This document shows positions 4,264-57,655 of a DNA stretch of 64,000 nt, piece after piece. The DNA is taken from contig CAKOXP010000006.1 of assembly GCA_934130175.1 (NCBI GenBank), positions 8,868 through 72,867 on the forward strand. The letters are read 5' to 3'. Within the stretch, counting starts at the first letter, position 1; each line of letters begins with the position of its first letter. The notes under the pieces are model-generated. The model made no database searches. It was given only the letters and a program-made list of their open reading frames with translations, and was not told where the DNA came from. Source of the DNA: an uncultured Bacilli bacterium (GTDB lineage: Bacteria; Bacillota_I; Bacilli_A; RF39; UBA660). A program made the position numbers and the translations under genes.

Positions 4264-4368
4264 TTACTTATTTCTTATATAAATATTATATCATAGCAAT
4301 ACTTCTATTACATGTTTTATAAACAAAAATTAGAAATTTACATACAATAATTTATAAGGGAGGATACT

Positions 4369-4761
4369 ATGGAAAAGGAATTAAATAATACAGTAACTGC
4401 TGTTGGTAATTATAATGATGTTCCAACATCTATTACATCTGCTGTTTCTGTTGTAACAATGATTGATGGTCTTACAATTACTAAAAGCAGTGATAAACAA
4501 AACTGGGCTAGTGGAAATTTAACTTATACAGTAATCATTAATAACCAATCTGAAAAGCCTTACAATAGTCCAGAAGTTAAAGATGTCTTAAATACAACAT
4601 TAGTAGATTTTGTAGAAAATAGCGTTACTATTGATGGACAAGCTGCTGAACAATCTGATTATACTTATGACGATGGTTCTGGAACATTAACTATAAATCT
4701 ATCAGATATTTCCGTTTCTGAATCTAAAACTATTACTTTTCAAGTTAAGAAAAAATCATAG
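4369..4761 (+). CDS. DUF11 (conserved repeat domain) protein, no signal peptide
   Basis: LTITKSSDKQNWASGNLTYTVIINNQSEKPYNSPEVKDVLNTTLVDFVENSVTIDG...GTLTINLSDISVSESKTITFQVKKK fits the DUF11 pattern; strong RBS AAGGGAGG upstream. Confidence 0.65.
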   Translation: MEKELNNTVTAVGNYNDVPTSITSAVSVVTMIDGLTITKSSDKQNWASGNLTYTVIINNQSEKPYNSPEVKDVLNTTLVDFVENSVTIDGQAAEQSDYTYDDGSGTLTINLSDISVSESKTITFQVKKKS

Positions 4762-4789
4762 AAAAAAATCACAGTTTTGTGATTTTTTT
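4762..4789. terminator. Bidirectional intrinsic terminator
   Basis: AAAAAAATCACA-GTTT-TGTGATTTTTTT between convergent stops at 4761 (+) and 4788 (-). Confidence 0.7.
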
Positions 4790-6653
4790 ACTCTTCTAAA
4801 GACCAAGAAATAAGTGATTCATATTCTACTCCGTTAGCAATACTATCTGATATTCTTAGTAATATTCCCCTATTTTTACTAAAACTTACATTAGTAACTT
4901 TAGTACTACCACCATTGCCTTCTCCAGTGTAGACGAGAATTGGCGTAGTAGATAAGTTTGTTATATTTCCATCTTCATCTATAAATACAATAGCGTCTTT
5001 CAAGATTTTTCCATCAGATGATATTAAATCATGATCTAGAGCTGCATACAATTTCCAACTAGTACTATTTGCTCTTGAATCAGTAACTACTACTACTAAA
5101 TCATTTTTTCTAGGACATAGTACAGGGTCAATACTTATTGGAGAAAATACAAAATTAATCAATTTAGAAGCTTCATCTAAAATAAGCTCTCCTGTATATA
5201 TAATTTGAATTACTTTCGTATGATAAATTAAATCATTTTGAGACTTTGCTGTTAAAGTAATAACAGTTCCAATTGGTAAAGCCTCATCATATGAATAAGA
5301 AAAATTACCTGTAGATGAAGCCTTTATAACTGATGATACGTCATTATATTCAATTAATATTGATGCATCATTATCCATTAGACCAACAAGCTCCGTATCA
5401 GTATCTGTTAGAGTATTTACATGAATTTGAAAATCTCCTACAGACATAATCTTTTTATTTGAAAAGATAAAATTACTAAGACTCGGAAGATTTGCCAGCT
5501 CCTCCTCTGTATAATTATTACTACTAATATTAGTAGCGCTATTTGTAAAAGTTCCTTTAATAGTTGTTATTCCACTATTCTTATACCAAGCATACGTTGG
5601 AAGATTTGCTTTTGTTATTTCTTCATTTATTGTAATAGAATTATTAAATAAGTTTAGTCTTGTAAAATTAAATTCAAATGGAATACTTGCAGAAGTATAA
5701 ATAACATTCGCCACTGTATTATATAAAACTACCTTTAGGGGATTATTTAAAATAAATCCTGCATTTGCTCCTGAAAAATATAAATTATAATTTGATGATG
5801 TAATATTTGAATAATTACTAATTATACTTAGAGTTGAATTGTTATTTAAGGTTAATTTTCCATAACTATACCAAGTTGGATAGCTTCCATTACGACTTTG
5901 TTGTTTTAAATAGAATTTAGCATTCTCTTCTATCGTTGTAGTACCAGTTCCAAAAGTACCATAACCCATACCAGAATTAGTAATAACACTAAATTCTGCA
6001 TTTTTTGAAATTGTAAATGTCAAATTATTTGTTCCATAAAATAACTCTCTTTTCTCACTAGTAAAATAAACTAAAGAATCTTTCAAGATAGTAAGAGATG
6101 GATTATCATTTCTAAACCAAAAAGACGAATTACCTGTTGATTTATGAGTAATTATTGTATTTCCACCTATTTCAATTTTATTACATTCACTAACCTCATT
6201 ACCCGATGCATAATTATCCTGAATAATGATATTACAATCCATAAATCTTGTAAGTCCTGTTGGATGATAACTAATTTGAGGACCAACATAATCTACATAG
6301 CTATATTCTACAACTATATCTTTATAGTTATTATTTTCAGGAACATAGATTACTCCATAGTAATTATATCCTGTAATACTCATATTCTTAACAGTAACTT
6401 TTTTTATTGAAGCAGATGACGCCGTTATAACATCAGAAGCACTTGTACTTTTTTTATCCTCAAGTAAGTATTTTACTCCATTATAAGTACCATCTAAAGT
6501 AACCGATGTTTTAGAACTAGAAATATTAATACCAGTAGTTAGAACTATATCACTACCAAAATAAATATATGTATAATTATTGTTTTCTTCTAAGGTTTTT
6601 TTTAATTCTGCACTATCATAGATAACGACAGTAGTATCATTAATAATTGTCAT
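4788..6653 (-). CDS. Beta-helix (pectate-lyase-like adhesive) protein with C-terminal WxL domain, no signal peptide
   Basis: 621 aa; N/I/T/S-rich repetitive beta-strand pattern; C-terminus INFVFSPI...VVVTDSRANSTSWKLYAA...VSFSKNRGILLRIS...YESLISWSLEE = WxL layout; N-terminus MTIINDTTVVIYDSAELKK is hydrophilic. Confidence 0.65.
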   Translation of the reverse strand: MTIINDTTVVIYDSAELKKTLEENNNYTYIYFGSDIVLTTGINISSSKTSVTLDGTYNGVKYLLEDKKSTSASDVITASSASIKKVTVKNMSITGYNYYGVIYVPENNNYKDIVVEYSYVDYVGPQISYHPTGLTRFMDCNIIIQDNYASGNEVSECNKIEIGGNTIITHKSTGNSSFWFRNDNPSLTILKDSLVYFTSEKRELFYGTNNLTFTISKNAEFSVITNSGMGYGTFGTGTTTIEENAKFYLKQQSRNGSYPTWYSYGKLTLNNNSTLSIISNYSNITSSNYNLYFSGANAGFILNNPLKVVLYNTVANVIYTSASIPFEFNFTRLNLFNNSITINEEITKANLPTYAWYKNSGITTIKGTFTNSATNISSNNYTEEELANLPSLSNFIFSNKKIMSVGDFQIHVNTLTDTDTELVGLMDNDASILIEYNDVSSVIKASSTGNFSYSYDEALPIGTVITLTAKSQNDLIYHTKVIQIIYTGELILDEASKLINFVFSPISIDPVLCPRKNDLVVVVTDSRANSTSWKLYAALDHDLISSDGKILKDAIVFIDEDGNITNLSTTPILVYTGEGNGGSTKVTNVSFSKNRGILLRISDSIANGVEYESLISWSLEE

Positions 6654-6660
6654 AAAAACA

Positions 6661-6682
6661 CCTCATATTATATAATATGAGG
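6661..6682 (-). terminator. Perfect 22-nt palindrome: terminator/SD-sequestering hairpin
   Basis: CCTCATATTATATAATATGAGG; on the mRNA its 3' arm carries the GAGG Shine-Dalgarno 8-9 nt before ATG 6653, followed by TGTTTTTATG. Confidence 0.5.
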
Positions 6683-6730
6683 ATTATCTTTTATTGTATC
6701 AACGAATGTATGATATCAATTATATATTTG

Positions 6731-7900
6731 TTATTTAACACTTCTTTTTCTATTGCAAGAATTTACAAATTTGTTAAATTCTTTAAATGTTAAATTTGCT
6801 GGTATTTCTGGTATTTCTGTTAATTCTAAATTCTTATCATCAACTATGTCATCTAAAGCATCATCTATACCAATATATGGATGAATACCTTTTCTTTTAT
6901 GATCCGAATGTTCAAAATGATACCAAATATTATTATTTTTAAAAAGGACAAAACATCGCATTTTATTTTTATCTTCTTCATTTTGTGCTTTTGAACAAAA
7001 TAACTTACTTTCAAAACCATGAGTATCAAAAAAGTTTTTAATAAGTTGTGCTTGTTCTATACACGTTCCAACACCAGAATTTAGAATCTGGCTTATAGAA
7101 CCTGTCTTATAATTTTCTTCTAAATTTGAAAGATTATTTAAATGCATTCCACCATCAACATCAATCCAACCATATGATATATTTTTATCCATAAATTCCA
7201 TCAATTCTTTTGGTGTTTTTAAACTTTGATACTTACTAAGTCTATTGACTTTTTGATTATAAACAACAAAATCTCGATCATCAAAAATATAAAATGGTTT
7301 TGTTCCAATTACCTCATACTTACCATTATCTATGTATATAGTATCTTCATCTGGTAGTACAAGAATTTTTTCATACCTAGAAGTTTTTAATAAATGTAGA
7401 TTATCACTTTCAATATAATGATTTAATAAAGCAAAACCATTTATTTTGTTAAGTCCATCTAAATCTTTTAAACCTACCTCGTTAGTAGTAGCATGAGTAC
7501 AAGTATTAATAGACTTTCCCAATACTTCTGAACCTGCTCCAAAGCCAAACACAACGCCATCTCTATCTATATAGTCACTTAGTTTCTTAAAACATTCTGT
7601 CTTCTTTAATCCATCTAATAGTCTAAACTCATTACCATCATCAAAATATAAAACAGAATAATCATCAAAGTTTTTAGATTCTAATTCTTCAAAACTTTTT
7701 ACAAGCTCAATATTTGGAACATTCACATCTGCAAGTTCCTCTTTAATAAAATCAAAACAACCATCATAAGAATAGTTTTTAGGATTCATAGCCAAAGGAA
7801 TATATAAGATTGGTTTACTATTATCAATAACCTCATCTAATTTTTTATAAACATTTGGTTTTTGTTGTTCACATTCTCCACCACATAAAAACAATTTCAT
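6731..7900 (-). CDS. Fusion: peptidase S51/class-I amidotransferase-like N-domain + transglutaminase/papain-like cysteine-protease C-domain
   Basis: N-term MKLFLCGGE...KPILYIPLAMNP...GFGAGSEVLG (S51-like); C-term GVGTCIEQAQLIKNFF...NIWYHFEHSD (Cys/His core). Confidence 0.5.
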   Translation of the reverse strand: MKLFLCGGECEQQKPNVYKKLDEVIDNSKPILYIPLAMNPKNYSYDGCFDFIKEELADVNVPNIELVKSFEELESKNFDDYSVLYFDDGNEFRLLDGLKKTECFKKLSDYIDRDGVVFGFGAGSEVLGKSINTCTHATTNEVGLKDLDGLNKINGFALLNHYIESDNLHLLKTSRYEKILVLPDEDTIYIDNGKYEVIGTKPFYIFDDRDFVVYNQKVNRLSKYQSLKTPKELMEFMDKNISYGWIDVDGGMHLNNLSNLEENYKTGSISQILNSGVGTCIEQAQLIKNFFDTHGFESKLFCSKAQNEEDKNKMRCFVLFKNNNIWYHFEHSDHKRKGIHPYIGIDDALDDIVDDKNLELTEIPEIPANLTFKEFNKFVNSCNRKRSVK

Positions 7901-8041
7901 ATCGTCACCTACTTTATAAATCCTATCCTTTTACTATCTACATTATACCTTAATTATATATATTTTGTCTAATAATTATTTTTATTAAATAGACTTTGCC
8001 ACATACATAAACTTAAATTTTTCATAAATTATAATGAAAGG

Positions 8042-9058
8042 ATGAACACTATGAATTATGAAGATAAAATAAGACAAGTTCTAGAAAATAGTAATACTAG
8101 AAGAAAATTGATAAAAGCAGGAATTTATCCAAATCAAACTATTGGTCCTACTGGTCCTGCTGGTAAAGGACTTGAAATAATGGGAAGTTATGATTCTTTA
8201 GAAGAGTTAAAGAAGAATCATCCTACTGGTAATAATGGTGATACCTACATAGTTAATGGTGAATTATATATTTGGAATCAAGAATTAAATGATTGGTCTG
8301 ATATTGGTAATGTAAAAGGATCTAAGGGTGATACAGAAACTTTTATTGTTAATAGTACTAAAACAGCAAATCCAAATGAAGATGCTAAAGTCATTGATAA
8401 TAAAGTTGATTTAACACACTATCTAGATTTTGTTATTCCAAAAGGTGATATCGGGCCTAAGGGTGACAAGGGTGAAACTGGGTTACAAGGTCCTCAAGGG
8501 GAAAAAGGTGATATTGGCCCCATCGGTCCTACTGGACCTAAAGGTGAACAAGGGGAAAAAGGTGATATTGGACCAAAGTGTGAAAAAGGAGACATTGGTC
8601 CAACAGGGCCTGAAGCCTCACTAGGAGCTACTAGTTATGATGCTATCTTATTTATAAGTTTTGCTCAAGCTCATTATTCTAAGGTTATGACTTTCCAAGA
8701 AGTAATAAGTATTCCAAATGACAACAACTATTTTAGTACTTTAAGTGATACAGAATTTTTAGTTACTGAAAATGGTTACTATGAAATTACTTTATGTGGT
8801 CAAATATCAGGAGTTGATCAAGATCATGGGGCAATATTTTATCTATCAAATGATAAAGGAAGTGTAGTCCAAGATTTATCTTTCCAACTTAAAGCTGGAA
8901 CAACTTCAAGAATGGATTGCTCAGAAACAACAATTGCCAAAATCGACGGTAATACGACGTTATATGTAAGGTGCGGTATAACTGGTGATAGTTCAACTGC
9001 AAATATAGATTTTGCTAATGTAAATCTTATTATTAAAAAATATAATTTCACACAATAA
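8042..9058 (+). CDS. BclA-like collagen triple-helix repeat protein with globular C-terminal domain
   Basis: GPTGPAGKG then a 57-aa G-X-Y run [44 protein letters not shown]...; likely start is ATG 8051 (AAAGGA 8 nt upstream); no signal peptide. Confidence 0.8.
8444..8611 (+). repeat. Gly-X-Y collagen-like coding repeat
   Basis: Triplet periodicity ggt/gga/ggg every 9 nt; internal near-duplicate GEKGDIGP units. Confidence 0.85.
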
Positions 9059-9075
9059 ATATAGGAGTAATTATA

Positions 9076-9432
9076 ATGAGAAAAATTAAATTAAAATTTT
9101 GTGATTTTCTTAATATTTGTAACTATAAAATATTTATCTATGATGAAAATAATCATCTTTTAAAAAGTATGGAAATAAATAATAGTAACTATATTCCTTT
9201 AGAAATTACATATTGTGGTATATATAAAATTGTTATCATTTCTAAACATTTATATCCTAAAAAAAGATGTTTTGTTTTATATTTAGATAGAAAAACACCA
9301 GATACTTTACTAATACCATATCAAGTAAGGCAAAAAAAATCTCGTAAAATAGAATTCAATTTAACTGATGAGGTTTATAAAGGTCTACCAATAGAGAAAG
9401 GAGAAATAACTTTATGGGAAAAGAACATGTAG
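9076..9432 (+). CDS. Hypothetical protein (118 aa)
   Basis: RBS AGGAG 7 nt upstream; C-terminal IEFNLTDEVYKGLPIEKGEITLWE resembles the C-terminus of the next gene. Confidence 0.5.
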   Translation: MRKIKLKFCDFLNICNYKIFIYDENNHLLKSMEINNSNYIPLEITYCGIYKIVIISKHLYPKKRCFVLYLDRKTPDTLLIPYQVRQKKSRKIEFNLTDEVYKGLPIEKGEITLWEKNM

Positions 9433-9962
9433 TTCCAATTACTAATGGAAAAGGTAGTAAAGAATTAATCAATGGTTCATATGATGTAGTAGCTGATGTT
9501 GAAGGATATGATAATTCAACTATAAATCCTGCTACCCAAGAAATTACGGAGGCAGCTACTTCATATAATTTTACTATTAAAGCATCTGGGACTTTAACAT
9601 TACATGTAACTGATGATGGTACAGATGTTGGAGTTCCTGTAGAAGGAGCAGTATTTTATAGATGTGATTATGTTGGTAATGTTTATGGAGACCCAATAAT
9701 TACAGATGAAGAAGGTAATGCTGTATTAAAAAGTGTTCCCTATTCTACCTCAGGAAATCCACCAACTGTTTATTTTAAACAAACAAAATCTGATGGAGAA
9801 CACACCTTCGATGATGCATTACAAGGTGAAGAGTTAGATACTGATAGTAAAACGGTTGAAATCAGAAATTCAGATGCTACTTTAAGAAGTATTAATTTAA
9901 CTGATGCTACATACGCTAATTTACCAATAGCTGATGGTAATTTAACATTCAAAGAACAATAA
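9414..9962 (+). CDS. Cna-B/prealbumin-like fold protein (182 aa), no signal peptide
   Basis: GTLTLHVTDDGTDVGVPVEGAVFYRCD...GDPIITDEEGNAVLKSVPY...YFKQTKSDGEHT resembles SpaA/Cna-B type domains; AAAGGAG RBS; 19-nt overlap with upstream gene. Confidence 0.5.
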   Translation: MGKEHVVPITNGKGSKELINGSYDVVADVEGYDNSTINPATQEITEAATSYNFTIKASGTLTLHVTDDGTDVGVPVEGAVFYRCDYVGNVYGDPIITDEEGNAVLKSVPYSTSGNPPTVYFKQTKSDGEHTFDDALQGEELDTDSKTVEIRNSDATLRSINLTDATYANLPIADGNLTFKEQ

Positions 9963-9967
9963 TTAAA

Positions 9968-9993
9968 AATCTCAACTAATTTTAGTTGAGATT
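9968..9993. terminator. Bidirectional intrinsic terminator
   Basis: AATCTCAACTA-ATTT-TAGTTGAGATT between convergent genes. Confidence 0.65.
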
Positions 9994-10511
9994 TATTTAT
10001 TTTCAAGTAGTAGTTTTATTATTTCATCTTTATCTTTAAAAATAGAATCTTGAAGAATGAATTTTTGCTTAATATTGAAAAAATACTTTAGAAGTAAAAT
10101 ATCATTTACTCTATATTTAACCCCTTGTTTCTTTAAATATCTGCAAGTAAATAATTTACATGAAATAGATTTAATAGTACAATGCCCATTTTTAAAGTTT
10201 TTACATAGACCTCTTTTAGTACCATAACAACAACCATTTAAAGATTCTCTACAATGACCATTATTTCTTACCGATATACATCTATTATTCTCAAAACAAC
10301 AAATATTTTTATTTTGAAATTCATTATCCAGATATGTACAAACAACATCATAAATATAAGAATATCTTTTTTCTAAATCTTTTTCATTGGAAGCTATTAT
10401 TATTTGTTTTTTTACTAAATCAGTTGTATTACTTTTTAAATAAACACTTTTATTCTTATATTTTTTGATGTTTTTATAAAAATTTTCATCATCTTTAATA
10501 AATATATCCAT
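9993..10511 (-). CDS. Cysteine-rich cytoplasmic protein, YkgJ-like Zn/Fe cysteine-cluster candidate
   Basis: 14 Cys in 70 aa: NICCFENNRCISVRNNGHCRESLNGCCYGTKRGLCKNFKNGHCTIKSISCKLFTC; no signal peptide. Confidence 0.45.
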   Translation of the reverse strand: MDIFIKDDENFYKNIKKYKNKSVYLKSNTTDLVKKQIIIASNEKDLEKRYSYIYDVVCTYLDNEFQNKNICCFENNRCISVRNNGHCRESLNGCCYGTKRGLCKNFKNGHCTIKSISCKLFTCRYLKKQGVKYRVNDILLLKYFFNIKQKFILQDSIFKDKDEIIKLLLENK

Positions 10512-14350: not shown

Positions 14351-17300
14351 TTAATCTACCTTTTTTACTTTTATGACTGGTCTTATCCCAATATTTTTGC
14401 TAGAATTTGAAAGGTTGTAGACTGTTTTCTTAGAACATGTACCAGTCGCATAATATCTTGTTGTACTATTTTTTGAAACAGTATGTTTTATATTTTCATT
14501 TGAACCACTAAAGCTACCAAAATTAAATTGATATACAGTAGTGTTTTGCGTTGGATAACAATAACCACTACCAAATGTTCCTGACGTGTTATTACTAATA
14601 TTTTGGATTAATGCCTCTCTAGCTGTAGTTGTTGCTACATAAACACTATCTCCACCACAAACTGCCTTAACTCTTCTTAAATAATTATATGCATTTGGAC
14701 TACCATCAGCATAATCTGTAGAACCACAATTATTATTAAAATAGTTTGTGTAAAATCCTATGTCATTAGTTGAAGTAAATACTACATTACCATCAATAAC
14801 GGAAACAATATTACCAGTCGAATAACTACTAGTATAATTTTGACTATCAGAAACACTGTAACTAAATGTTGAAGAGCCACTAGATGAATTGCAATAATTT
14901 AACGTTCCACTACTTGTACTTCCAACAGTATAATTTCTCTTGCAGGTAATAGCAGTTCCACCTATAGATACACTCCAACTTGAATATGCTTGTGTTCCTG
15001 GTGATGTTATAGTTTTTGAAGAAGAGGTTGTACCATAATATGAACCTGTAGTAGAAGATGAATAACTTGAACCAGGTATTGATAAAGAACTAGAAGATGA
15101 TGATAAAGAATCTATGGTTGAACTAGCAGATTTTAATGTTGTTGCCAATGATGTAGTAGATAAAGATCTTGCGCTATACCCTGCATAGTAATTCTGGGAT
15201 GAGGTTGAATATTTAGTATACGTATATCCTTTGGTTCCTTCAGGATTAGCTATATACATACTATTTCCAGATGAAATTGTCCCTGTCCAAAAAGGTGTAG
15301 AACTAGAGTTACTTATATTAGTTGATAATTCTGAACTTAACGGTAACCTTGTATAATCTGTATAATTTGATGAACCATTTGTAAATGTCATTTTAAATAA
15401 GCCACCGTTAGTTTTATCATTATTTATTACACCATTGTTTGTTATCAAATTATTTGCTTTAGTATATGCATTATTGCTGTTTGACCAGGAAGAATTAGAA
15501 CCGTATTCACCAGTTGCATAATTTCCATCATATATTAATGTTACACTATCTGTATCACTGGATAAAACTTTCCAATTACTAGCTGCGTATGTAATTATAT
15601 CTCCTGCATTATATGTTACTGATGAAGGTACTCCTGTTATTGTAGTAGTGTTTTCAATATTGCTACATGTAGACAATCCAACACCATTTATTGAACATAT
15701 TTGATAATAATAAGTAGTATATTTGTTTGTTGGTATTGTACAGCTAGTACTACTACTTGATAATGAAATTGAAGAACCTAATGTTTCATCAGTACCATAA
15801 TTACATGTATATTTTGATATTCCACTTTCAGCATCAAAGCCCCCTGTGTAGTCAATAACTAAGCTTGTACCATTATTTGAAACACTAGAAATGCTAACAG
15901 CGTTTGGTGGAGTATTATCTTGTGCTTTTGCAATTAGTGTAACATCACTATTCAAAGTATAATTAGATAATTTTTCGCCTGAATTTCCTATTTTTGTCCC
16001 TGTTGAATTATACCAGCCAGTTGGAATATATCCATTATTAGCCACTATAGTTGGTAATGTTACATAAGTAGGTATACATGTTGAAATTCCTGATGAATCA
16101 AATGTACAGCTTGTTGCTGATCCCGTAGTTGTAAATGATGTTGAGTTAGAGCTTATTGATGATACCTGTGAACCTTTTACATATGTTATTGTATAAACTC
16201 TTCCCTTTACCTCTATATTTCCTGTAGTTATTTTATCATTTTTATTTCCTGAATTATCACTTATTATTCCTTGTTTTAGACTTACATTAAAGCTTCCTAC
16301 ACTTTCTCCCTTCAACGTTAATACATAACTATAGCCATTTGTTACTGCTACTTTATTTCCTATACTTACTATACTTCCTGATACATTTGATACTTCAAAG
16401 TCTGTTCTTGTCAAATCCTTTTGGACTATCTTACTTCCTGAATCTGTACATGTCATTGTTATGGTTGTTGTGTTCCCTGTAGTTATACTTCCACTTGTTG
16501 TATAACTGCATTTTGGTTTTGTTTCATCTTTCCATACCGCATAAAGATTTACTACCCCTAAATCTTTCTTTGTTAAATCTTTTACTGTTTGTTTATCATT
16601 ATATTCTACTGTTGTACTTTCTTTTGTTGTTGTCCATCCTTTAAATGTATATCCTTCTTTACTTACTAAGCTACTTGCTTCTGTTAATTCATAACTTGAT
16701 CCTACAATTGCATTCGTTGTTCCTTTTTTTGTATCTCCATCATAATAGTTTATTGTATATGAATTTCCTGTTAAAGCTCTTGCATAATATATTTTATTAT
16801 TACTTGTTACTTTTTCACCACTACTACTCCCCGTTGTTGCATCACTACTTACTCCAAAGAATCCTTTCTTATATCCTTCCTCTACCTCTATTGTTGGACT
16901 TTCTACCATACAACTTGTTGCTTGCACTTCTCCATTATATGTTTCATTTATAAAACAGCTCGTCTTTATACTTTCTTTTTCACTTGTTATACTATTACTT
17001 CCAAGACTTAGTTTTGTTACATGACTATTTTCTACTATCTTGAACTCTACTTCTTTTTCTACCTTATCCTTTTTTGTTTGAGCATAATATTTACCATTTT
17101 CTCCTACTTCTTTTGCATCATTACTACTCCAATCATTTACGTATCTACTACTTTCTGTTGAATATCCTATTACCGTTGGTGTTTCTGTACTAGCTCCTAT
17201 TATTGGAGATGTTATACTACATGTTTTATTTTGACTTTCTCCATTATATGTTATTGGTATTGTGCAACTTTTCTCTATTATGTCATCCTCTTTGCCTGAC

Positions 17301-19810
17301 TGCGTTTTTGCTCCATTTTTATTAAACTGTATTGTTACTGTTTTTGGTGTGTTTTTTGTTAATGCATAATATGTAATATCATTTGATATTTCTATATTTT
17401 CGTTAGATTTTACTATTCCTGCTGTTGCATCTTTGCTTTCACCATATCCTATCACTATCGGTGTTGCACTACTTGCCTCTATTATTGGAGTTGTTACATA
17501 ACAACTTGTTTCTTGGATACTGTCATTATATACTGCAGCTATTATACATGTCTTTTTTAATTCTTCTACTTCTTTTCCATCTAGTGATGCTGCACCATTT
17601 CTTTTGAATGTCGTTGTTAGTTCTATCTCATTCTTTTTACTTATTGTAAAAAACTCTGTATCTTTTTCTATGTCTACTTCTTCTAATTCTTTATAACCTT
17701 CTTTTGCTTCTTTATCTGCATTCCATCCTACCTTTGAATATCCTTCTTTTACCTTCATACTTGGCATTTTTACTTTACACTTTAATGTTTGATCTTTTAT
17801 TTCACAACTTGCTGTTGTATTTGATATTTTTTCTACGCCTTGACCATTTCTTGTAAATGTAACTGTTATTGTTTTTATTACTTTTACTTTTACCTCTTTT
17901 GTTATTTTTCCATTCGCTTCTGTTACTGTTATGGTTGTAACCCCTGGTGATACTGCTCTTACTATTCCTTTTTCTGTTACGATTGCTATTTCTTTATTAT
18001 TACTTTTATAGCTTAGCTTTCCTATATTTGTTCCACTTATTTCTATTTGTTTTTCTGTTGTTCCTGTTAAATCTAATTCTATCTCTGGTGTATTAACATT
18101 CATACTCACTACTTTTGCAGTAGTTGACTCTACTTCTTCATTTTTATTTCCTACTTTATCTAAAACACTATTTCCTTTTAATTTTATTGTGAAGTTTCCT
18201 GAAGTCTTTCCTCTTACTGTTATCTTATATTTATATCCTTTATTTATCTTCTCTCCTATACTTATACTTTCTACTTCTCCTACTTCACTATCACTTACTT
18301 CTATTCTTTCTGTTTCTATTTTTGTTGTCGCTATATCTGCTGGATCTGTACATGTTAATTCTATCTCTTTTGTTTTGCCCTTTTCTACATATCCTCCATC
18401 TTCAAAACTACAACTTGGTTTTGTTTCATCTATATTTGTTATATCTACTGTCTTTTTGACTACGTTTCCTTTACTATCTTTTACGAAGATATAATATCTT
18501 CCATTCTTTACTATATTTAAACTTACTTTTTTATTTACTAATTCTTTATATTCACTATCTCCTGGTTTCTTATCTGTTGTTGTTACCGCATAATATGCTT
18601 TCTCTGATTCTGAGTCTGCTTCTATTGTTACTGTTGTACTTATATTTTCCTCTTCCTCTTTTTTTACTGTCGCTGTTAAACCTTGACTCTTTCCATTTAC
18701 TATTACTTTTCTTACTACACTCGCTGTATTTCCTTCACTATCTATTACTATATATTTTATTATGTAAGTTCCTGCTACTTCACTATTTACTACTCCTTCT
18801 ACTACTACTTTATCTGTTAATTCTCCATCTTCTACATCTCTTGCTTCATATCCTGCTTCTACATACTTTTCTTTATAGTCTAGACTTATTTCTTCTTCTC
18901 CCTTTAACACTATTGTTGGAGTATTTGTCCCTTTCTTTACTACATTTACTACTCTTGTTGAAATTCCCTTTATTCCTTTACTATCTTCTACTTCATAATA
19001 TATATAGTATATCCCTACTTTACTTGTATCTATTTTTTCTACACTCTCTGTTGTTTCTCCATTATTATATTCATATCTTACTTTTACTTTATCTAGGCTT
19101 ATTTCTTCACGTGATGAGACACTACTTACTCCTGCATCTACATATTCTTCATTTTGATTTATTTTTACTACACTTTCTCCATTTAGTTTTATTACTGGAT
19201 TTGTTGTTACTATATTTTCTGTATTTGTTTGGACTACATTTACTACTACTTTTGCTTTATATGTTTGTCCTTGTACTTCATTTGTTGCATCTTCTTTTAA
19301 CCACATCTTTATTTGATATGTTTCTTCTTCTCCCTTTTCTAAAATCCTATTTTCTTTTAGTACTAATCCACTTGATAATAACACTGGACTACTCCAGTCT
19401 CCTTCTCCTTCTTTTATGGAATATTTTATATTACTTTTATCTAGTGTATTTCCTTCCTTTTCTTCTAGATAGATTGTATATTTTCCATTTAATGTTCCTA
19501 TGTTTCTTACTGTGAATGTATATGGTTCTTGATTTAGTCCTTCTACATCTGTTAGAGGTGATGCATTATTTAGACTTATTGTATTTTTATCTTCATATTC
19601 TACTTTTAATGTCCCTGCCACTACTTCTGTTTGTTTATTTCCTTTTATTGTTGTTTGAAATAACGCATAGCTTCCTCCTATGGTTATTACAAGCAAAAAA
19701 ACTGCCAAAACTATTATTTTCGCATATTCTTTTTTATTTCTTTGTCTTATCTTCTCGTTAGATATTTTTACTTTTTTATATCTATCTCCTATGCGTCCTT
19801 TCTTTGGCAT
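14351..19810 (-). CDS. Giant (1819 aa) surface protein: TasA/camelysin-like N-domain, DUF5011/Ig-like, Big_2-like, Cys-pair Listeria-Bacteroides-type repeats, FN3, Ser-rich C-terminal domain
   Basis: Signal anchor ending IGGSYALFQ...AGTLKVEY (TasA-like); PVIKLNGES.../PTIVLKGEE... (DUF5011-like); YTFKGWTTTKE...LYAVW; C-terminus ...NIGIRPVIKVKKVD. Confidence 0.85.
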   Translation of the reverse strand: MPKKGRIGDRYKKVKISNEKIRQRNKKEYAKIIVLAVFLLVITIGGSYALFQTTIKGNKQTEVVAGTLKVEYEDKNTISLNNASPLTDVEGLNQEPYTFTVRNIGTLNGKYTIYLEEKEGNTLDKSNIKYSIKEGEGDWSSPVLLSSGLVLKENRILEKGEEETYQIKMWLKEDATNEVQGQTYKAKVVVNVVQTNTENIVTTNPVIKLNGESVVKINQNEEYVDAGVSSVSSREEISLDKVKVRYEYNNGETTESVEKIDTSKVGIYYIYYEVEDSKGIKGISTRVVNVVKKGTNTPTIVLKGEEEISLDYKEKYVEAGYEARDVEDGELTDKVVVEGVVNSEVAGTYIIKYIVIDSEGNTASVVRKVIVNGKSQGLTATVKKEEEENISTTVTIEADSESEKAYYAVTTTDKKPGDSEYKELVNKKVSLNIVKNGRYYIFVKDSKGNVVKKTVDITNIDETKPSCSFEDGGYVEKGKTKEIELTCTDPADIATTKIETERIEVSDSEVGEVESISIGEKINKGYKYKITVRGKTSGNFTIKLKGNSVLDKVGNKNEEVESTTAKVVSMNVNTPEIELDLTGTTEKQIEISGTNIGKLSYKSNNKEIAIVTEKGIVRAVSPGVTTITVTEANGKITKEVKVKVIKTITVTFTRNGQGVEKISNTTASCEIKDQTLKCKVKMPSMKVKEGYSKVGWNADKEAKEGYKELEEVDIEKDTEFFTISKKNEIELTTTFKRNGAASLDGKEVEELKKTCIIAAVYNDSIQETSCYVTTPIIEASSATPIVIGYGESKDATAGIVKSNENIEISNDITYYALTKNTPKTVTIQFNKNGAKTQSGKEDDIIEKSCTIPITYNGESQNKTCSITSPIIGASTETPTVIGYSTESSRYVNDWSSNDAKEVGENGKYYAQTKKDKVEKEVEFKIVENSHVTKLSLGSNSITSEKESIKTSCFINETYNGEVQATSCMVESPTIEVEEGYKKGFFGVSSDATTGSSSGEKVTSNNKIYYARALTGNSYTINYYDGDTKKGTTNAIVGSSYELTEASSLVSKEGYTFKGWTTTKESTTVEYNDKQTVKDLTKKDLGVVNLYAVWKDETKPKCSYTTSGSITTGNTTTITMTCTDSGSKIVQKDLTRTDFEVSNVSGSIVSIGNKVAVTNGYSYVLTLKGESVGSFNVSLKQGIISDNSGNKNDKITTGNIEVKGRVYTITYVKGSQVSSISSNSTSFTTTGSATSCTFDSSGISTCIPTYVTLPTIVANNGYIPTGWYNSTGTKIGNSGEKLSNYTLNSDVTLIAKAQDNTPPNAVSISSVSNNGTSLVIDYTGGFDAESGISKYTCNYGTDETLGSSISLSSSSTSCTIPTNKYTTYYYQICSINGVGLSTCSNIENTTTITGVPSSVTYNAGDIITYAASNWKVLSSDTDSVTLIYDGNYATGEYGSNSSWSNSNNAYTKANNLITNNGVINNDKTNGGLFKMTFTNGSSNYTDYTRLPLSSELSTNISNSSSTPFWTGTISSGNSMYIANPEGTKGYTYTKYSTSSQNYYAGYSARSLSTTSLATTLKSASSTIDSLSSSSSSLSIPGSSYSSSTTGSYYGTTSSSKTITSPGTQAYSSWSVSIGGTAITCKRNYTVGSTSSGTLNYCNSSSGSSTFSYSVSDSQNYTSSYSTGNIVSVIDGNVVFTSTNDIGFYTNYFNNNCGSTDYADGSPNAYNYLRRVKAVCGGDSVYVATTTAREALIQNISNNTSGTFGSGYCYPTQNTTVYQFNFGSFSGSNENIKHTVSKNSTTRYYATGTCSKKTVYNLSNSSKNIGIRPVIKVKKVD
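15930..17880 (-). repeat. Array of about 6 diverged 80-95-aa coding repeat modules (Listeria-Bacteroides-repeat-like, most with a conserved Cys pair)
   Basis: Recurring F-x-x-NG...C-x-I-x-x-x-YNGE-x-Q-x-x-x-C-x-(I/V)T-x-P-x-I...GY...YYA-x-TK pattern; approximate borders. Confidence 0.6.
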
Positions 19811-39062: not shown

Positions 39063-39623
39063 CTAAATTACTTCATTATTGTCTTTGATAACATTTTCAT
39101 CAATGAAATCTTCTTTAACTTCATTATCTATTTCTTTATCCATTACTTCTTGTGATTCTACTATTTCATCCCAAGGATCTTCTTCTTCATCTATTTGGAT
39201 TTTTACTTTTAAATCGCCAACTAATTCGATACCTAATTCTTTTTCAATTACATAATTAATGTTATTTCCATCAATATCTACCTTAACACAATTAGGCTGT
39301 TTTAAGCTTCTTACAATAATTTCTTCTTGATCACTATCGGCATCTTCTCTTCTTCTAACATTAACTATTTCTTGATATGTATTATGTTCTTTTAATACCT
39401 CAGTTTTAGTATCATTATCATATGAATACCAAATATTTACATCATATGATCCATCAATTATAACAGAATCATTTTGTTTTGTTCCCTTAAATTGATGATT
39501 AATAACCCAACACCCTAAAATAGTAGACGGACTATTTTCTACACTCTTTGTATTTTTTGTAGTAAAAGTCTTTTTACCTTTTCCTATAACTGCTTTTGTA
39601 ACAATCTCTTTATAACTAGACAT
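39063..39623 (-). CDS. cotE: Outer spore coat morphogenetic protein CotE
   Basis: MSSYKEIVTKAVIGKGKK...STILGCWVINHQF...YDVNIWYSYDNDTKTEV...LKQPNCVKV...acidic tail; collinear with my recollection of B. subtilis CotE. Confidence 0.85.
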   Translation of the reverse strand: MSSYKEIVTKAVIGKGKKTFTTKNTKSVENSPSTILGCWVINHQFKGTKQNDSVIIDGSYDVNIWYSYDNDTKTEVLKEHNTYQEIVNVRRREDADSDQEEIIVRSLKQPNCVKVDIDGNNINYVIEKELGIELVGDLKVKIQIDEEEDPWDEIVESQEVMDKEIDNEVKEDFIDENVIKDNNEVI

Positions 39624-50761: not shown

Positions 50762-51022
50762 TTATTTAGATTCTATTATAAGTTTTATGGCAGTACGTTC
50801 TTCTCCATCGATTGCAATATCAGAAAATGCTGGTATACATACTAAGTTTTTTCCAGAAGGTGCAACAAAACCCCTTGCGATTGCAATTGCCTTTATAGCC
50901 TGATTTAGGGCTCCTGCTCCTACTGCCTGAATCTCGACAGTTCCTTTTTCACGAAAGACATTTGCAAGAGCTCCTGCAACGCTATTTGGATTAGATTTAC
51001 TGCTTACTTTAAGTGTTTCCAT
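50762..51022 (-). CDS. spoVS: Stage V sporulation protein S
   Basis: METLKVSSKSNPNSVAGALANVFREKGTVEIQAVGAGALNQAIKAIAIARGF, 86 aa. Confidence 0.92.
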   Translation of the reverse strand: METLKVSSKSNPNSVAGALANVFREKGTVEIQAVGAGALNQAIKAIAIARGFVAPSGKNLVCIPAFSDIAIDGEERTAIKLIIESK

Positions 51023-57043: not shown

Positions 57044-57655
57044 CTATTTTACTAACTTATTATAAATATTGTTAGCATTAGTAAAATCCGCTATTAACAT
57101 AAAATTATCAAAGTAATTAGACTTATTATTTTCATAGTTTATATAATAAGCATGTTCCCATAAATCAATGTTAAATAATGGGATATATCCAAATAATACA
57201 GGTAACTCCTGATTAGAAAAATTTTTAATTTCAAGCATTCCATCATTTCTTAAAACTAAAAAAGTATAACCAGATCCTTTTAGTTTCATAACATTTTCCT
57301 TTAATTTAGCAAAAAAATTATCTAAAGATCCAAATTGATTTTCTATTTTCTTTCTAAGCTTACCATTTGGAAAACTATTCTTCTTAGGACTAATACTATT
57401 AAAATATAAATTATGATTTAAGACTCCTCCTAAGTTAAATAATATATCTTCCTGAATATTCTTAGGAAATTCCATAATATGAAATGGTAACTCTTCTATA
57501 GTATATCTGTAATCATAATTACTCTTCATAAGTAAATCATTTAATTTATTTAAATATCCTTGTTGATGTTTATGATAATGTAATCCCATGGTATGTGTAT
57601 CTATATAAGGTTCTAAATCTTGAAACAAGTATGGTAATTTTGGTAATTCATACAT
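57044..57655 (-). CDS. sodA: Fe/Mn superoxide dismutase
   Basis: YELPKLPY...LEPYIDTHTMGLHYHKHQQGY, DLWEHAYY; start ATG 57655 behind GGGAGGA. Confidence 0.88.
   Translation of the reverse strand: MYELPKLPYLFQDLEPYIDTHTMGLHYHKHQQGYLNKLNDLLMKSNYDYRYTIEELPFHIMEFPKNIQEDILFNLGGVLNHNLYFNSISPKKNSFPNGKLRKKIENQFGSLDNFFAKLKENVMKLKGSGYTFLVLRNDGMLEIKNFSNQELPVLFGYIPLFNIDLWEHAYYINYENNKSNYFDNFMLIADFTNANNIYNKLVK

Follow-up and report, generated by a model that had tools for sequence, protein, structure and literature searches.

Among described spore-surface loci, the closest in gene content to the one reported here is the spore-appendage cluster of Clostridium taeniosporum (P29a/b, GP85, CL2, CRD1/2), in which DUF11 and collagen-like genes lie side by side under sigmaK promoters of the form mACm-N16-CATA-N3-TA, and the products, which carry no signal peptide, are added to the spore at a late stage (PMC5749712). 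Here we analyse six neighbouring open reading frames (ORF1 to ORF6) in a 64-kb stretch of DNA from an uncultured Bacilli bacterium (hereafter the window; all ORF positions are its coordinates). The locus shares with the C. taeniosporum cluster its DUF11 and collagen-like genes, its sigmaK-type promoters and its leaderless products. The likeness described here is one of gene content, and the host lineages differ, C. taeniosporum belonging to the Clostridia and the host of the window to the Bacilli. Moreover, the clostridial cluster has neither beta-solenoid/WxL nor ORF5/6-type proteins, and its DUF11 domains occur in multi-repeat or 29-kDa proteins instead of in a split single unit of 130 amino acids (aa).

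A second likeness is to the ENA fibres of Bacillus (S-/L-ENA, F-ENA and A-ENA, with L-BclA, F-BclA and F-Anchor), in which small leaderless beta-rich subunits self-assemble in the mother cell into stable fibres and the genes lie beside those for collagen-like tips or anchors. None of the six proteins matches DUF3992, DUF4183 or A_ENA in Pfam. The joints that we propose also differ, combining an isopeptide bond with strand donation instead of the disulfides of S-/L-ENA or the N-terminal hooks of F-ENA, and the fibres of the present locus are predicted from genes.

The cluster belongs with the sigmaK-driven, leaderless spore-surface and appendage loci, includes protein families that have not yet been described on spores and has a plausible new mechanism of assembly. 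An earlier annotation made from the letters of the window (the sequence-only reading) knew of no description of the combination. It is not wholly undescribed: DUF11 and collagen-like genes behind sigmaK promoters are known from C. taeniosporum (PMC5749712), and DUF11 itself occurs in the clostridial F-Anchor-3 of F-ENA (PMC12357932). We consider it probable (about 0.7) that these are late-sporulation, mother-cell structural genes for the outermost spore layer, be it coat surface, exosporium or appendages, with products assembled by the mechanism proposed below.

Promoters, export signals and layout

All six reading frames listed in the sequence-only reading are present, one of them (ORF4) with a revised probable start. 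Their strands, absent from that reading, are given here with the promoters of three units:

4369-4761, + strand: ORF1, 130 aa, a single split DUF11/CLIPPER unit, no signal peptide
4788-6653, - strand: ORF2, 621 aa, beta-solenoid, Ig-like domain and probable WxL domain, no signal peptide
6731-7900, - strand: ORF3, 389 aa, Peptidase_S51 with a weak transglutaminase-like C-terminal domain
8051-9058 (earlier 8042-9058), + strand: ORF4, 335 aa, collagen-like
9076-9432, + strand: ORF5, 118 aa, homologue of the ORF6 C-terminal half, its 3' end overlapping ORF6
9414-9962, + strand: ORF6, 182 aa, transthyretin/CarboxypepD_reg-like
4323..4349, + strand: sigmaK-type promoter of ORF1, AC-N16-CATACAATA, exact match, the C of the box 28 nucleotides (nt) before the start codon
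6671..6697, - strand: sigmaK-type promoter of ORF2, AC-N16-CATATTATA, exact match, box 26 nt before the start
8005..8031, + strand: sigmaK-type promoter of ORF4-5-6, AC-N16-CATAAATTA, exact match, box 28 nt before the 8051 start

As read from the sequence, the genes form four transcription units: ORF1, ORF2, ORF3 and ORF4-ORF5-ORF6. The searched pattern, AC-N16-CATAnnnTA, is the Bacillus subtilis sigmaK consensus, and a consensus of this type also defined the sigmaK promoters of the C. taeniosporum appendage cluster (PMC5749712). AC-N16-CATANNNTA has seven matches in the window. Three are the promoters of ORF1, ORF2 and ORF4, 26-28 nt upstream and on the correct strand, and the remaining four lie within or antisense to coding sequence. 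A CATA box at -26 to -28 precedes only five genes of the window, namely ORF1, ORF2, ORF4, cotE (CATACATTA at -27) and a gene for an Fe/Mn superoxide dismutase. Of the upstream regions that the sequence-only reading had proposed to scan, those of ORF1, ORF2 and ORF4 hold a sigmaK-type box and that of ORF3 holds none.

The upstream regions of ORF1 and ORF2 orthologues were aligned for 50-55 species-level loci, in which the proteins are 43-71% identical to those of the window. CATAnnnT occurs 22-30 nt before the start in 46 of 50 ORF1 and 38 of 55 ORF2 orthologues, against a background expectation of ~7%. The strict form, CATAnnnTA, is found in 34 of 50 and 23 of 55, respectively, versus 28 of the 740 other ORFs with a ribosome-binding site (RBS) in the same loci (3.8%). 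In the ORF1 orthologues A and C are enriched at -18/-17, which gives AC-N16-CATAnnnTA. Half of the 28 other ORFs with a strict box fall into three groups: three encode collagen-like proteins, nine encode amidases with a CwlD-like N-terminal domain and two encode SleB/CwlJ-like hydrolases. One member was scanned in each of the two enzyme groups, and both fell below family cut-offs. One further strict-box ORF, of 173 aa in locus L017, is CotE by Pfam (173.6 bits), and a SpoVD equivalog in L007 (707.7 versus 688 bits) has the looser CATAnnnT box upstream. From exact boxes that recur in orthologues and also stand before cotE, spoVD and cortex-hydrolase-like genes, we conclude that transcription of ORF1, ORF2 and the ORF4-5-6 operon very probably depends on a mother-cell sigma factor, and we favour sigmaK over sigmaE.

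The hydrophilic, leaderless N-termini described in the sequence-only reading were confirmed, as all six proteins lack a hydrophobic N-terminus or a membrane segment. The maximum Kyte-Doolittle value over 12-residue windows in the first 50 aa is 0.35-1.79 in the six, compared with 3.05-3.45 in four secreted or membrane proteins of the window, and every 19-residue window of the six products is at or below 1.25. The earlier reading had also raised the case of in-frame upstream starts that add signal peptides. There is no ATG, GTG or TTG between the start and the preceding in-frame stop of any of the six ORFs, so no leader can be added upstream, and alignments of homologues begin at the same Met as the window proteins.

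WxL, DUF11, SRRP-like and collagen-like proteins normally stand on the surface of growing cells, and one might read the genes as encoding a vegetative surface complex akin to the WxL/DUF11 adhesin systems, with lysis, a holin or an unrecognised signal as its way out of the cell. The persistence of the ORF1-ORF2 pair in CAG:826-type genomes, from a family predicted not to sporulate, speaks for such a complex. We regard it as improbable, however, since signal peptides, LPXTG motifs and membrane anchors are absent from the proteins, genes for secretion or for WxLIP (DUF916/DUF3324) are absent from their surroundings, the CATA promoters are common to cotE, spoVD and the amidase and SleB-type hydrolase-like genes, no TTGACA -35 element accompanies the promoters of ORF1, ORF2 and ORF4, and the neighbours in other genomes are BclA_C, Coat_F and A_ENA genes.

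ORF3 probably does not belong to the cluster despite lying inside it. Its residues 7-195 are a Peptidase_S51 domain (PF03575, 48.7 versus 23.9 bits), missed in the sequence-only reading, which had made ORF3 a transglutaminase-like fusion enzyme of the set. Behind the transglutaminase label stand a weak match of the C-terminal half to Transglut_core (PF01841, 14.8 versus 23 bits, profile positions 35-107 of 108) and a GTC...HFEH...D motif recognised by eye only. Membership of the set is not supported: ORF3 has no CATA box, a sigmaA-like TAGACA-N18-TATAAT lies at 7971-7942, and linkage elsewhere is absent, the sole exception being one S51-only gene in L007. ORF3 would then be an unrelated cytoplasmic peptidase.

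ORF1 is a stand-alone gene with a strong RBS. Three hairpins delimit the units:

4762..4789: bidirectional terminator shared by the convergent ORF1 and ORF2, a hairpin (ATCACA-GTTT-TGTGAT) with an A-run and a T-run at its sides, found by direct reading
6661..6682: hairpin with a perfect 9-bp stem between ORF3 and ORF2, containing the ORF2 -10 box, its 3' arm being the ORF2 RBS (GAGG)
9967..9994: bidirectional intrinsic terminator with a 12-bp stem, at the end of the ORF4-5-6 operon

The first was not flagged by a terminator scan because it has fewer than three G-C pairs. The second probably terminates ORF3 transcription, and in RNA reading past it the ORF2 RBS would be sequestered. CATA...TATG palindromes similar to it stand upstream of some ORF2 orthologues (L005, L006 and L018). 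Within the operon, ORF4 and ORF5 are separated by 17 nt, and ORF5 and ORF6 overlap by 19 nt. The most likely start of ORF4 is 8051 (MNYEDK...) rather than 8042: an RBS, GAAAGGA, lies at 8036-8042, and the 335-aa product is the one called on identical metagenome contigs. This start explains why an exact look-up of the protein beginning at 8042 gave no match. The window has a G+C content of ~27%, and stretches (near-)identical to it were found only in human-gut metagenome assemblies, including Hadza samples.

Several other genes of the window deserve mention. The Fe/Mn superoxide dismutase gene (57044-57655, - strand) has its box, CATAGACT, 26 nt before the start, in the position seen in cotE and the cluster genes, and may encode a sporulation-expressed, spore-associated enzyme. 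Directly upstream of cotE, between it and a gene for a 563-aa polysaccharide deacetylase, are two paralogues with a phage baseplate Gp10 C-terminal domain (PF21939; 39712-40416 and 40432-41157, - strand). Convergent with the ORF4-6 operon lies a gene for a 172-aa Cys-rich protein (9993-10511, - strand; CCFENNRC...CCYG...C...C) without a family match. Finally, an 1819-aa protein (14351-19810, - strand) has a basic N-terminus followed by a single hydrophobic anchor ending in '...GGSYALFQ', resembling TasA/SipW-type signals; shorter relatives of it (~576 aa, '...VGVSYSLF') adjoin ORF2 in L010 and L029.

The DUF11 unit of ORF1

The DUF11 label of ORF1 was upheld, PF01345 scoring 25.4 bits against a threshold of 24.6. 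Of 264 homologues found, those at the top of the list mostly carry the same domain. The Pfam alignment of ORF1 covers positions 2-83 of the 114 of the hidden Markov model, so the end of the domain is missing. The N-terminus of the family (LxN7TVxAVG...) is near-invariant. It forms a hairpin (~residues 5-32) that bears N7, and the core bears K39 and D72. When residues 2-32 were moved to the C-terminus, the DUF11 score rose in all four members so permuted (25.4 to 30.9, 29.5 to 31.8, 32.3 to 40.2 and 30.5 to 34.9 bits) and coverage extended to positions 98-102.

In the solved CLIPPER domain 9IFR, Lys715 forms the isopeptide bond, Asp748 is catalytic and the Asn partner follows the Lys by 91 residues (PMC12617251). 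The spacing between K39 and D72, 33 residues, equals that between K715 and D748. An Asn placed 91 residues after K39 would fall beyond the C-terminus of ORF1, and the strand bearing the Asn is found instead at the N-terminus (N7); this mapping of the triad rests on the Pfam model and on the residue numbers of the CLIPPER paper (PMC12617251). Among single-unit family members, N7 is kept in 149 of 153, K39 in 145 and D72 in 151.

ORF1 thus resembles CLIPPER stalk domains in reaching the family threshold and in its Lys-Asp spacing. The stalks, unlike ORF1, are tandem repeats in long secreted adhesins with an intramolecular bond, whereas ORF1 is a single 130-aa unit without a leader. A profile search of 1.84 billion representatives aligned the ORF1 unit contiguously across the repeat junctions of giant tandem DUF11 proteins, and yielded ~45 single-unit clusters and a few fused two-unit proteins of 255-258 aa. 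Only 2-3 residues separate the N-terminal hairpin of ORF1 from the first core strand, so the hairpin should complete a neighbouring subunit and not its own. The permutation of the Asn strand to the N-terminus of a single unit likewise implies a bond between chains. Taken together, the architecture suggests that ORF1 polymerises by strand donation and isopeptide locking.

Sequence searches of the PDB with ORF1, with the ORF1 family profile and with permuted ORF1 were uninformative. An alternative source of the missing strand was also considered, and no significant alignment to the ORF1 N-terminal strand was found in ORF2 to ORF6.

A precedent for the proposed N7-K39-D72 mechanism exists in BsaA of C. 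perfringens (TasA family), the N-terminal strand of which enters the sheet of the next subunit and is joined there by an Asn-Lys isopeptide bond formed via an acidic residue (bioRxiv 10.1101/2024.11.04.621531). Archaeal threads are a further precedent. The 'exchange-and-lock' joint of BsaA differs from that of ORF1 in setting: BsaA has a TasA/camelysin fold and SipW-type secretion, whereas ORF1 has a CLIPPER/DUF11 fold and no signal, and its assembly is proposed to occur in the mother-cell cytoplasm.

ORF2, ORF4 and the ORF5-ORF6 pair

The beta-helix assigned to ORF2 by the sequence-only reading is borne out by an AlphaFold2 model of high confidence (pLDDT 94, pTM 0.91). The protein comprises a right-handed beta-solenoid (~1-395), an Ig-like domain (~400-490) and a probable WxL domain (~490-621). 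The best PDB match of the first ~375 residues in Foldseek is the binding region of the serine-rich-repeat adhesin (SRRP) of Limosilactobacillus reuteri (5ny0; E 1.7e-5, probability 1.00, TM 0.65 on the target). At the sequence level, PF20585 (SRRP-type pectate-lyase-like) matches 3 of 29 ORF2 homologues, with a best E of 3e-9, and Big_6 (Ig-like) is present in 19 of the 29. The WxL label is supported in part. ORF2 itself is sub-threshold (19.2 versus 25 bits), while 10 of the 29 homologues match (best E 1.2e-5) and the motifs SWKLY and SWSLEE are present.

Like the WxL proteins of Enterococcus and Lactobacillus, ORF2 ends in a probable WxL domain and is paired with a small gene for an Ig-like partner, and its N-terminal beta-solenoid resembles the SRRP head of the gut commensal L. 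reuteri. To our knowledge, WxL proteins and SRRPs are all exported, by Sec or accessory Sec, and WxL partners are DUF916/DUF3324 proteins. ORF2 departs from these systems in being leaderless, in its sporulation-type promoter and in its DUF11 partner, and no DUF916/DUF3324 gene was found in the flanks.

A second ORF2 paralogue lies just past the left end of the window (L001, 17410-19281); it encodes 623 aa, is 36% identical and has a CATATATTA box at -29. This paralogue belongs to an ORF2-like subfamily found elsewhere directly upstream of ORF5-ORF6 pairs. In three loci (L063, L069 and L152) genes of the ORF2 family are split into 2-4 fragments, which may reflect gene decay where a lineage is on the way to losing the system, or assembly errors.

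The collagen label of ORF4 is secure (PF01391, 34 bits, residues 135-190). From the N-terminus, the protein comprises a conserved motif, a short stretch of GXY, a small domain also seen in phage fibres, ~21 GXY triplets (~134-198) and a 140-aa C-terminal globular domain. The epithet 'BclA-like' fits this architecture, and ORF4 resembles the BclA proteins of Bacillus anthracis and Clostridioides difficile in its short N-terminal domain, GXY repeats, C-terminal globular domain, leaderless product and sigmaK-type promoter. It does not extend to the C-terminal domain, which has no detectable relation to BclA_C: PF18573 gave no match in seven ORF4-type C-terminal domains, the profile of this domain found nothing in the PDB, and hhalign against a true BclA_C domain gave a probability of 18.7%. 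Two further differences are the extra N-proximal domain common to phage fibres and the lack of the exosporium leader TIGR03720, for which there was no NCBIfam match at E up to 0.1 and in place of which the orthologues have a different conserved N-terminal motif.

In B. anthracis and C. difficile, bclA is paired with a glycosyltransferase gene. An arrangement that recalls this pairing was seen in L069 (9687-10778) and L009 (1525-2622), where a gene for 363-365 aa, with TPR-like repeats and, by eye, the look of a glycosyltransferase, lies directly downstream of BclA-like collagen genes; the copy in L069 has a CATA box.

The kinship of ORF4 with phage fibres raises the question of whether the genes are prophage or tailocin remnants, with ORF4 as tail fibre, ORF5 and ORF6 as assembly proteins and ORF2 as tailspike. 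ORF4 matches many tail-fibre PHROGs (best E 2e-23) and, by tblastn, phage side tail fibres, and beta-helix tailspikes are among the weak Foldseek matches of ORF2. On the other hand, ORF1, ORF2, ORF3, ORF5 and ORF6 have no PHROG match, the neighbourhood has no capsid, portal, terminase, tail or integrase genes, and the genes are kept in many species, at 43-70% identity, as chromosomal modules of one or two genes. A Foldseek comparison of ORF2 with viral models gave no close match (TM at most 0.29, versus 0.65 to the SRRP adhesin), and a tailspike origin of ORF2 was rejected on these values. A phage origin of the set is accordingly very unlikely, the least probable of the explanations we weighed.

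ORF6 has 432 homologues of ~180 aa. The designation 'Cna-B-like' is acceptable at clan level, since CarboxypepD_reg matches 17 and SpaA 16 of 29 homologues (best E 2e-4); all of these matches are sub-threshold, and the window protein has none. An isopeptide pair was sought in the family alignment, and no invariant Lys or Asn was found at strand positions. A PDB sequence search with ORF6 gave nothing informative. The last 100 residues of ORF6 have a homologue in ORF5 (E 2e-7), and the two share a C-terminal tail motif, LTDxxYxxLPIxxGxxxLW; ORF5 has this tail and lacks the head. The ORF6 head matches the latter half of a CarboxypepD_reg-type domain of carboxypeptidase D, and when the ORF6 tail was joined to its own head, a CarboxypepD_reg match ran across the junction in three of four homologues (E 0.0014-0.03). 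Tentatively, we prefer head-to-tail chaining of ORF6 with ORF5 as a cap to a discontinuous domain closed within one chain.

Linkage, assembly and meaning for uncultured gut Bacilli

The sequence-only reading had treated the six genes as one module, and a single conserved operon was ruled out by tblastn on 69 genome loci. They are better described as three transcription units of separately mobile pairs with a loosely linked collagen gene. ORF1 and ORF2 are convergent in ~50 of the 69 species-level loci found with ORF2, with flanks that are unrelated in other respects, and few of these loci have an ORF4-type collagen gene beside the pair. An ORF5-like gene overlaps the start of an ORF6-like gene in 48 of 48 distinct cases, with a box in 30, and the wider contexts vary. 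At least 39 metagenome loci, falling into 5 of 18 ORF6 clusters at 90% identity, have BclA_C collagen, ORF2-like, ORF5-like and ORF6-like genes in that order. The ORF2-like genes of these loci form the second subfamily, being 34-37% identical to ORF2 and 42-45% to the paralogue left of the window. Other orders exist: ORF5-ORF6-ORF4-like with BclA-like and Coat_F genes (L084), ORF5-ORF6-ORF2-like-ORF6-like with a collagen gene (L096), and an A_ENA gene beside an ORF5-6 pair (L082). True BclA_C proteins adjoin ORF2-like genes in other genomes. Because separate conserved pairs are combined with repeated joint recurrence in other genomes, we read the window as an unusually complete set of functionally linked, separately mobile families.

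The same distribution bears on a simpler explanation, in which all are mother-cell components of coat or exosporium that act independently, their adjacency is incidental, and there is no ORF1 polymer, ORF1-ORF2 complex or ORF5/6 fibre. The two pairs do lie mostly at separate places in other genomes, an ORF2-like gene occurs within 5 kb in only 5 of 18 non-redundant ORF6 lineages, and the polymerisation models are inference only. Nevertheless, we judge independence unlikely. Conservation of the pairs (~50 of 69 for ORF1-ORF2, 48 of 48 for ORF5-ORF6) argues for physical partnership within each, the recurrence of four families in shuffled orders is a classical sign of functional coupling, and a split domain such as that of ORF1 is difficult to reconcile with a monomer.

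That the host sporulates, as the sequence-only reading had held from cotE and spoVS, agrees with our searches: cotE (39063-39623, 163.8 bits) is unambiguous and spoVS is present at 50762-51022. A SpoVM-like peptide, sought in the window as a further marker, was not found. The relatives reached through ORF2 are metagenome-assembled genomes labelled uncultured Bacilli/Tenericutes, Mycoplasma sp. CAG:776, Coprobacillus sp. CAG:826 and Firmicutes bacterium CAG:460, which we take to fall in RFN20/RF39-type orders of the GTDB. A survey predicts that orders of this type mix sporulating and non-sporulating families (PMC10868615). The loci of these relatives hold, besides the SpoVD equivalog, genes for YlmC/YmxH, a CotZ/ExsY-family protein and another CotE, together with LysM amidases with a sub-threshold CwlD-like N-terminal domain and hydrolases with a sub-threshold SleB-type domain.

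We propose the following course of events. SigmaK RNA polymerase would transcribe the three units in the mother cell, where the proteins would fold in the cytoplasm and assemble directly onto the engulfed forespore, like BclA and the ENA fibres; assembly from the mother-cell cytoplasm would explain why surface-type folds lack a leader. ORF2 would be a distal adhesin, its SRRP-like head binding host or dietary glycans and its C-terminal WxL domain holding it in place. Its obligatory partner would be ORF1, the last strand or hairpin of which, with Asn7, has moved to the N-terminus. Unable to complete its own fold, ORF1 would complete that of a neighbouring subunit and so chain head to tail, and Asp72 would catalyse a Lys39-Asn7 isopeptide bond locking each joint, giving a sortase-independent covalent stalk like tandem DUF11. 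ORF4 would trimerise through its collagen repeats into a BclA-like filament. Chains of ORF6 would form as the C-terminal tail of one copy slots into the incomplete half-domain at the N-terminus of the next, with ORF5, tail only, as cap or adaptor. Lysis of the mother cell would free the decorated spore, the likely role being adhesion or aggregation in gut transmission.

Several observations weigh against this account. The main threat to a spore function is the intact ORF1-ORF2 pair of 'Coprobacillus sp. CAG:826' (L040) and UBA7581 (L038), the RFN20 family named CAG-826 being predicted to lack spo0A and peptidoglycan (PMC10868615). The CATA box does not separate sigmaK from sigmaE and overlaps the TAnnnT core of the sigmaA -10 element. 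Most ORF1-ORF2 pairs and most ORF5-ORF6 pairs occur apart. The phage-fibre matches of ORF4 extend into its C-terminal domain. For ORF1, the hairpin made by residues 8-15 and 18-26 in the AlphaFold2 monomer is modelled less confidently (pLDDT 66-84), and Foldseek finds weak generic beta-sandwich matches only, with the split RrgA Jo.In domain at E 0.016. In ~5% of the family, all distant members, K39 is replaced by I, L, M or T while N7 is kept, so the isopeptide bond is not universal. For ORF6, evidence for a split domain is weak, the tail-head composite of the window protein giving no match. Finally, the whole case is built on sequence. What remains of the mother-cell spore-surface interpretation first offered by the sequence-only reading is its application to ORF1, ORF2 and ORF4-6, which have conserved sigmaK-type promoters and, in other genomes, family members beside BclA_C, Coat_F or A_ENA genes; it is not supported for ORF3.

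A bolder extension, which we hold to be possible but doubtful, is that ORF1, as a 'split CLIPPER' pilin of 130 aa, makes up spore fibres of a new class, free of sortase and secretion and tipped or anchored by the leaderless ORF2, comparable to a natural SpyTag/SpyCatcher chain, with ORF5/ORF6 forming a second fibre by split-domain logic. These would be the first spore appendages or adhesins described for uncultured gut Bacilli (RFN20/RF39-like). If true, the split CLIPPER would be a second independent case of polymerisation by 'strand exchange and isopeptide lock', and ORF1 a compact self-ligating module of possible use in protein engineering.

Spore surfaces decide the persistence, aggregation and attachment of anaerobic gut bacteria between hosts, and knowledge of them comes almost wholly from Bacillus and a few clostridia. 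The conserved CATA box could be used to chart the mother-cell regulon of the lineages studied here from metagenomes alone. The genes themselves are concrete candidates for spore-surface adhesins and fibres in abundant uncultured human-gut Bacilli, bacteria of which the ability to sporulate is debated.

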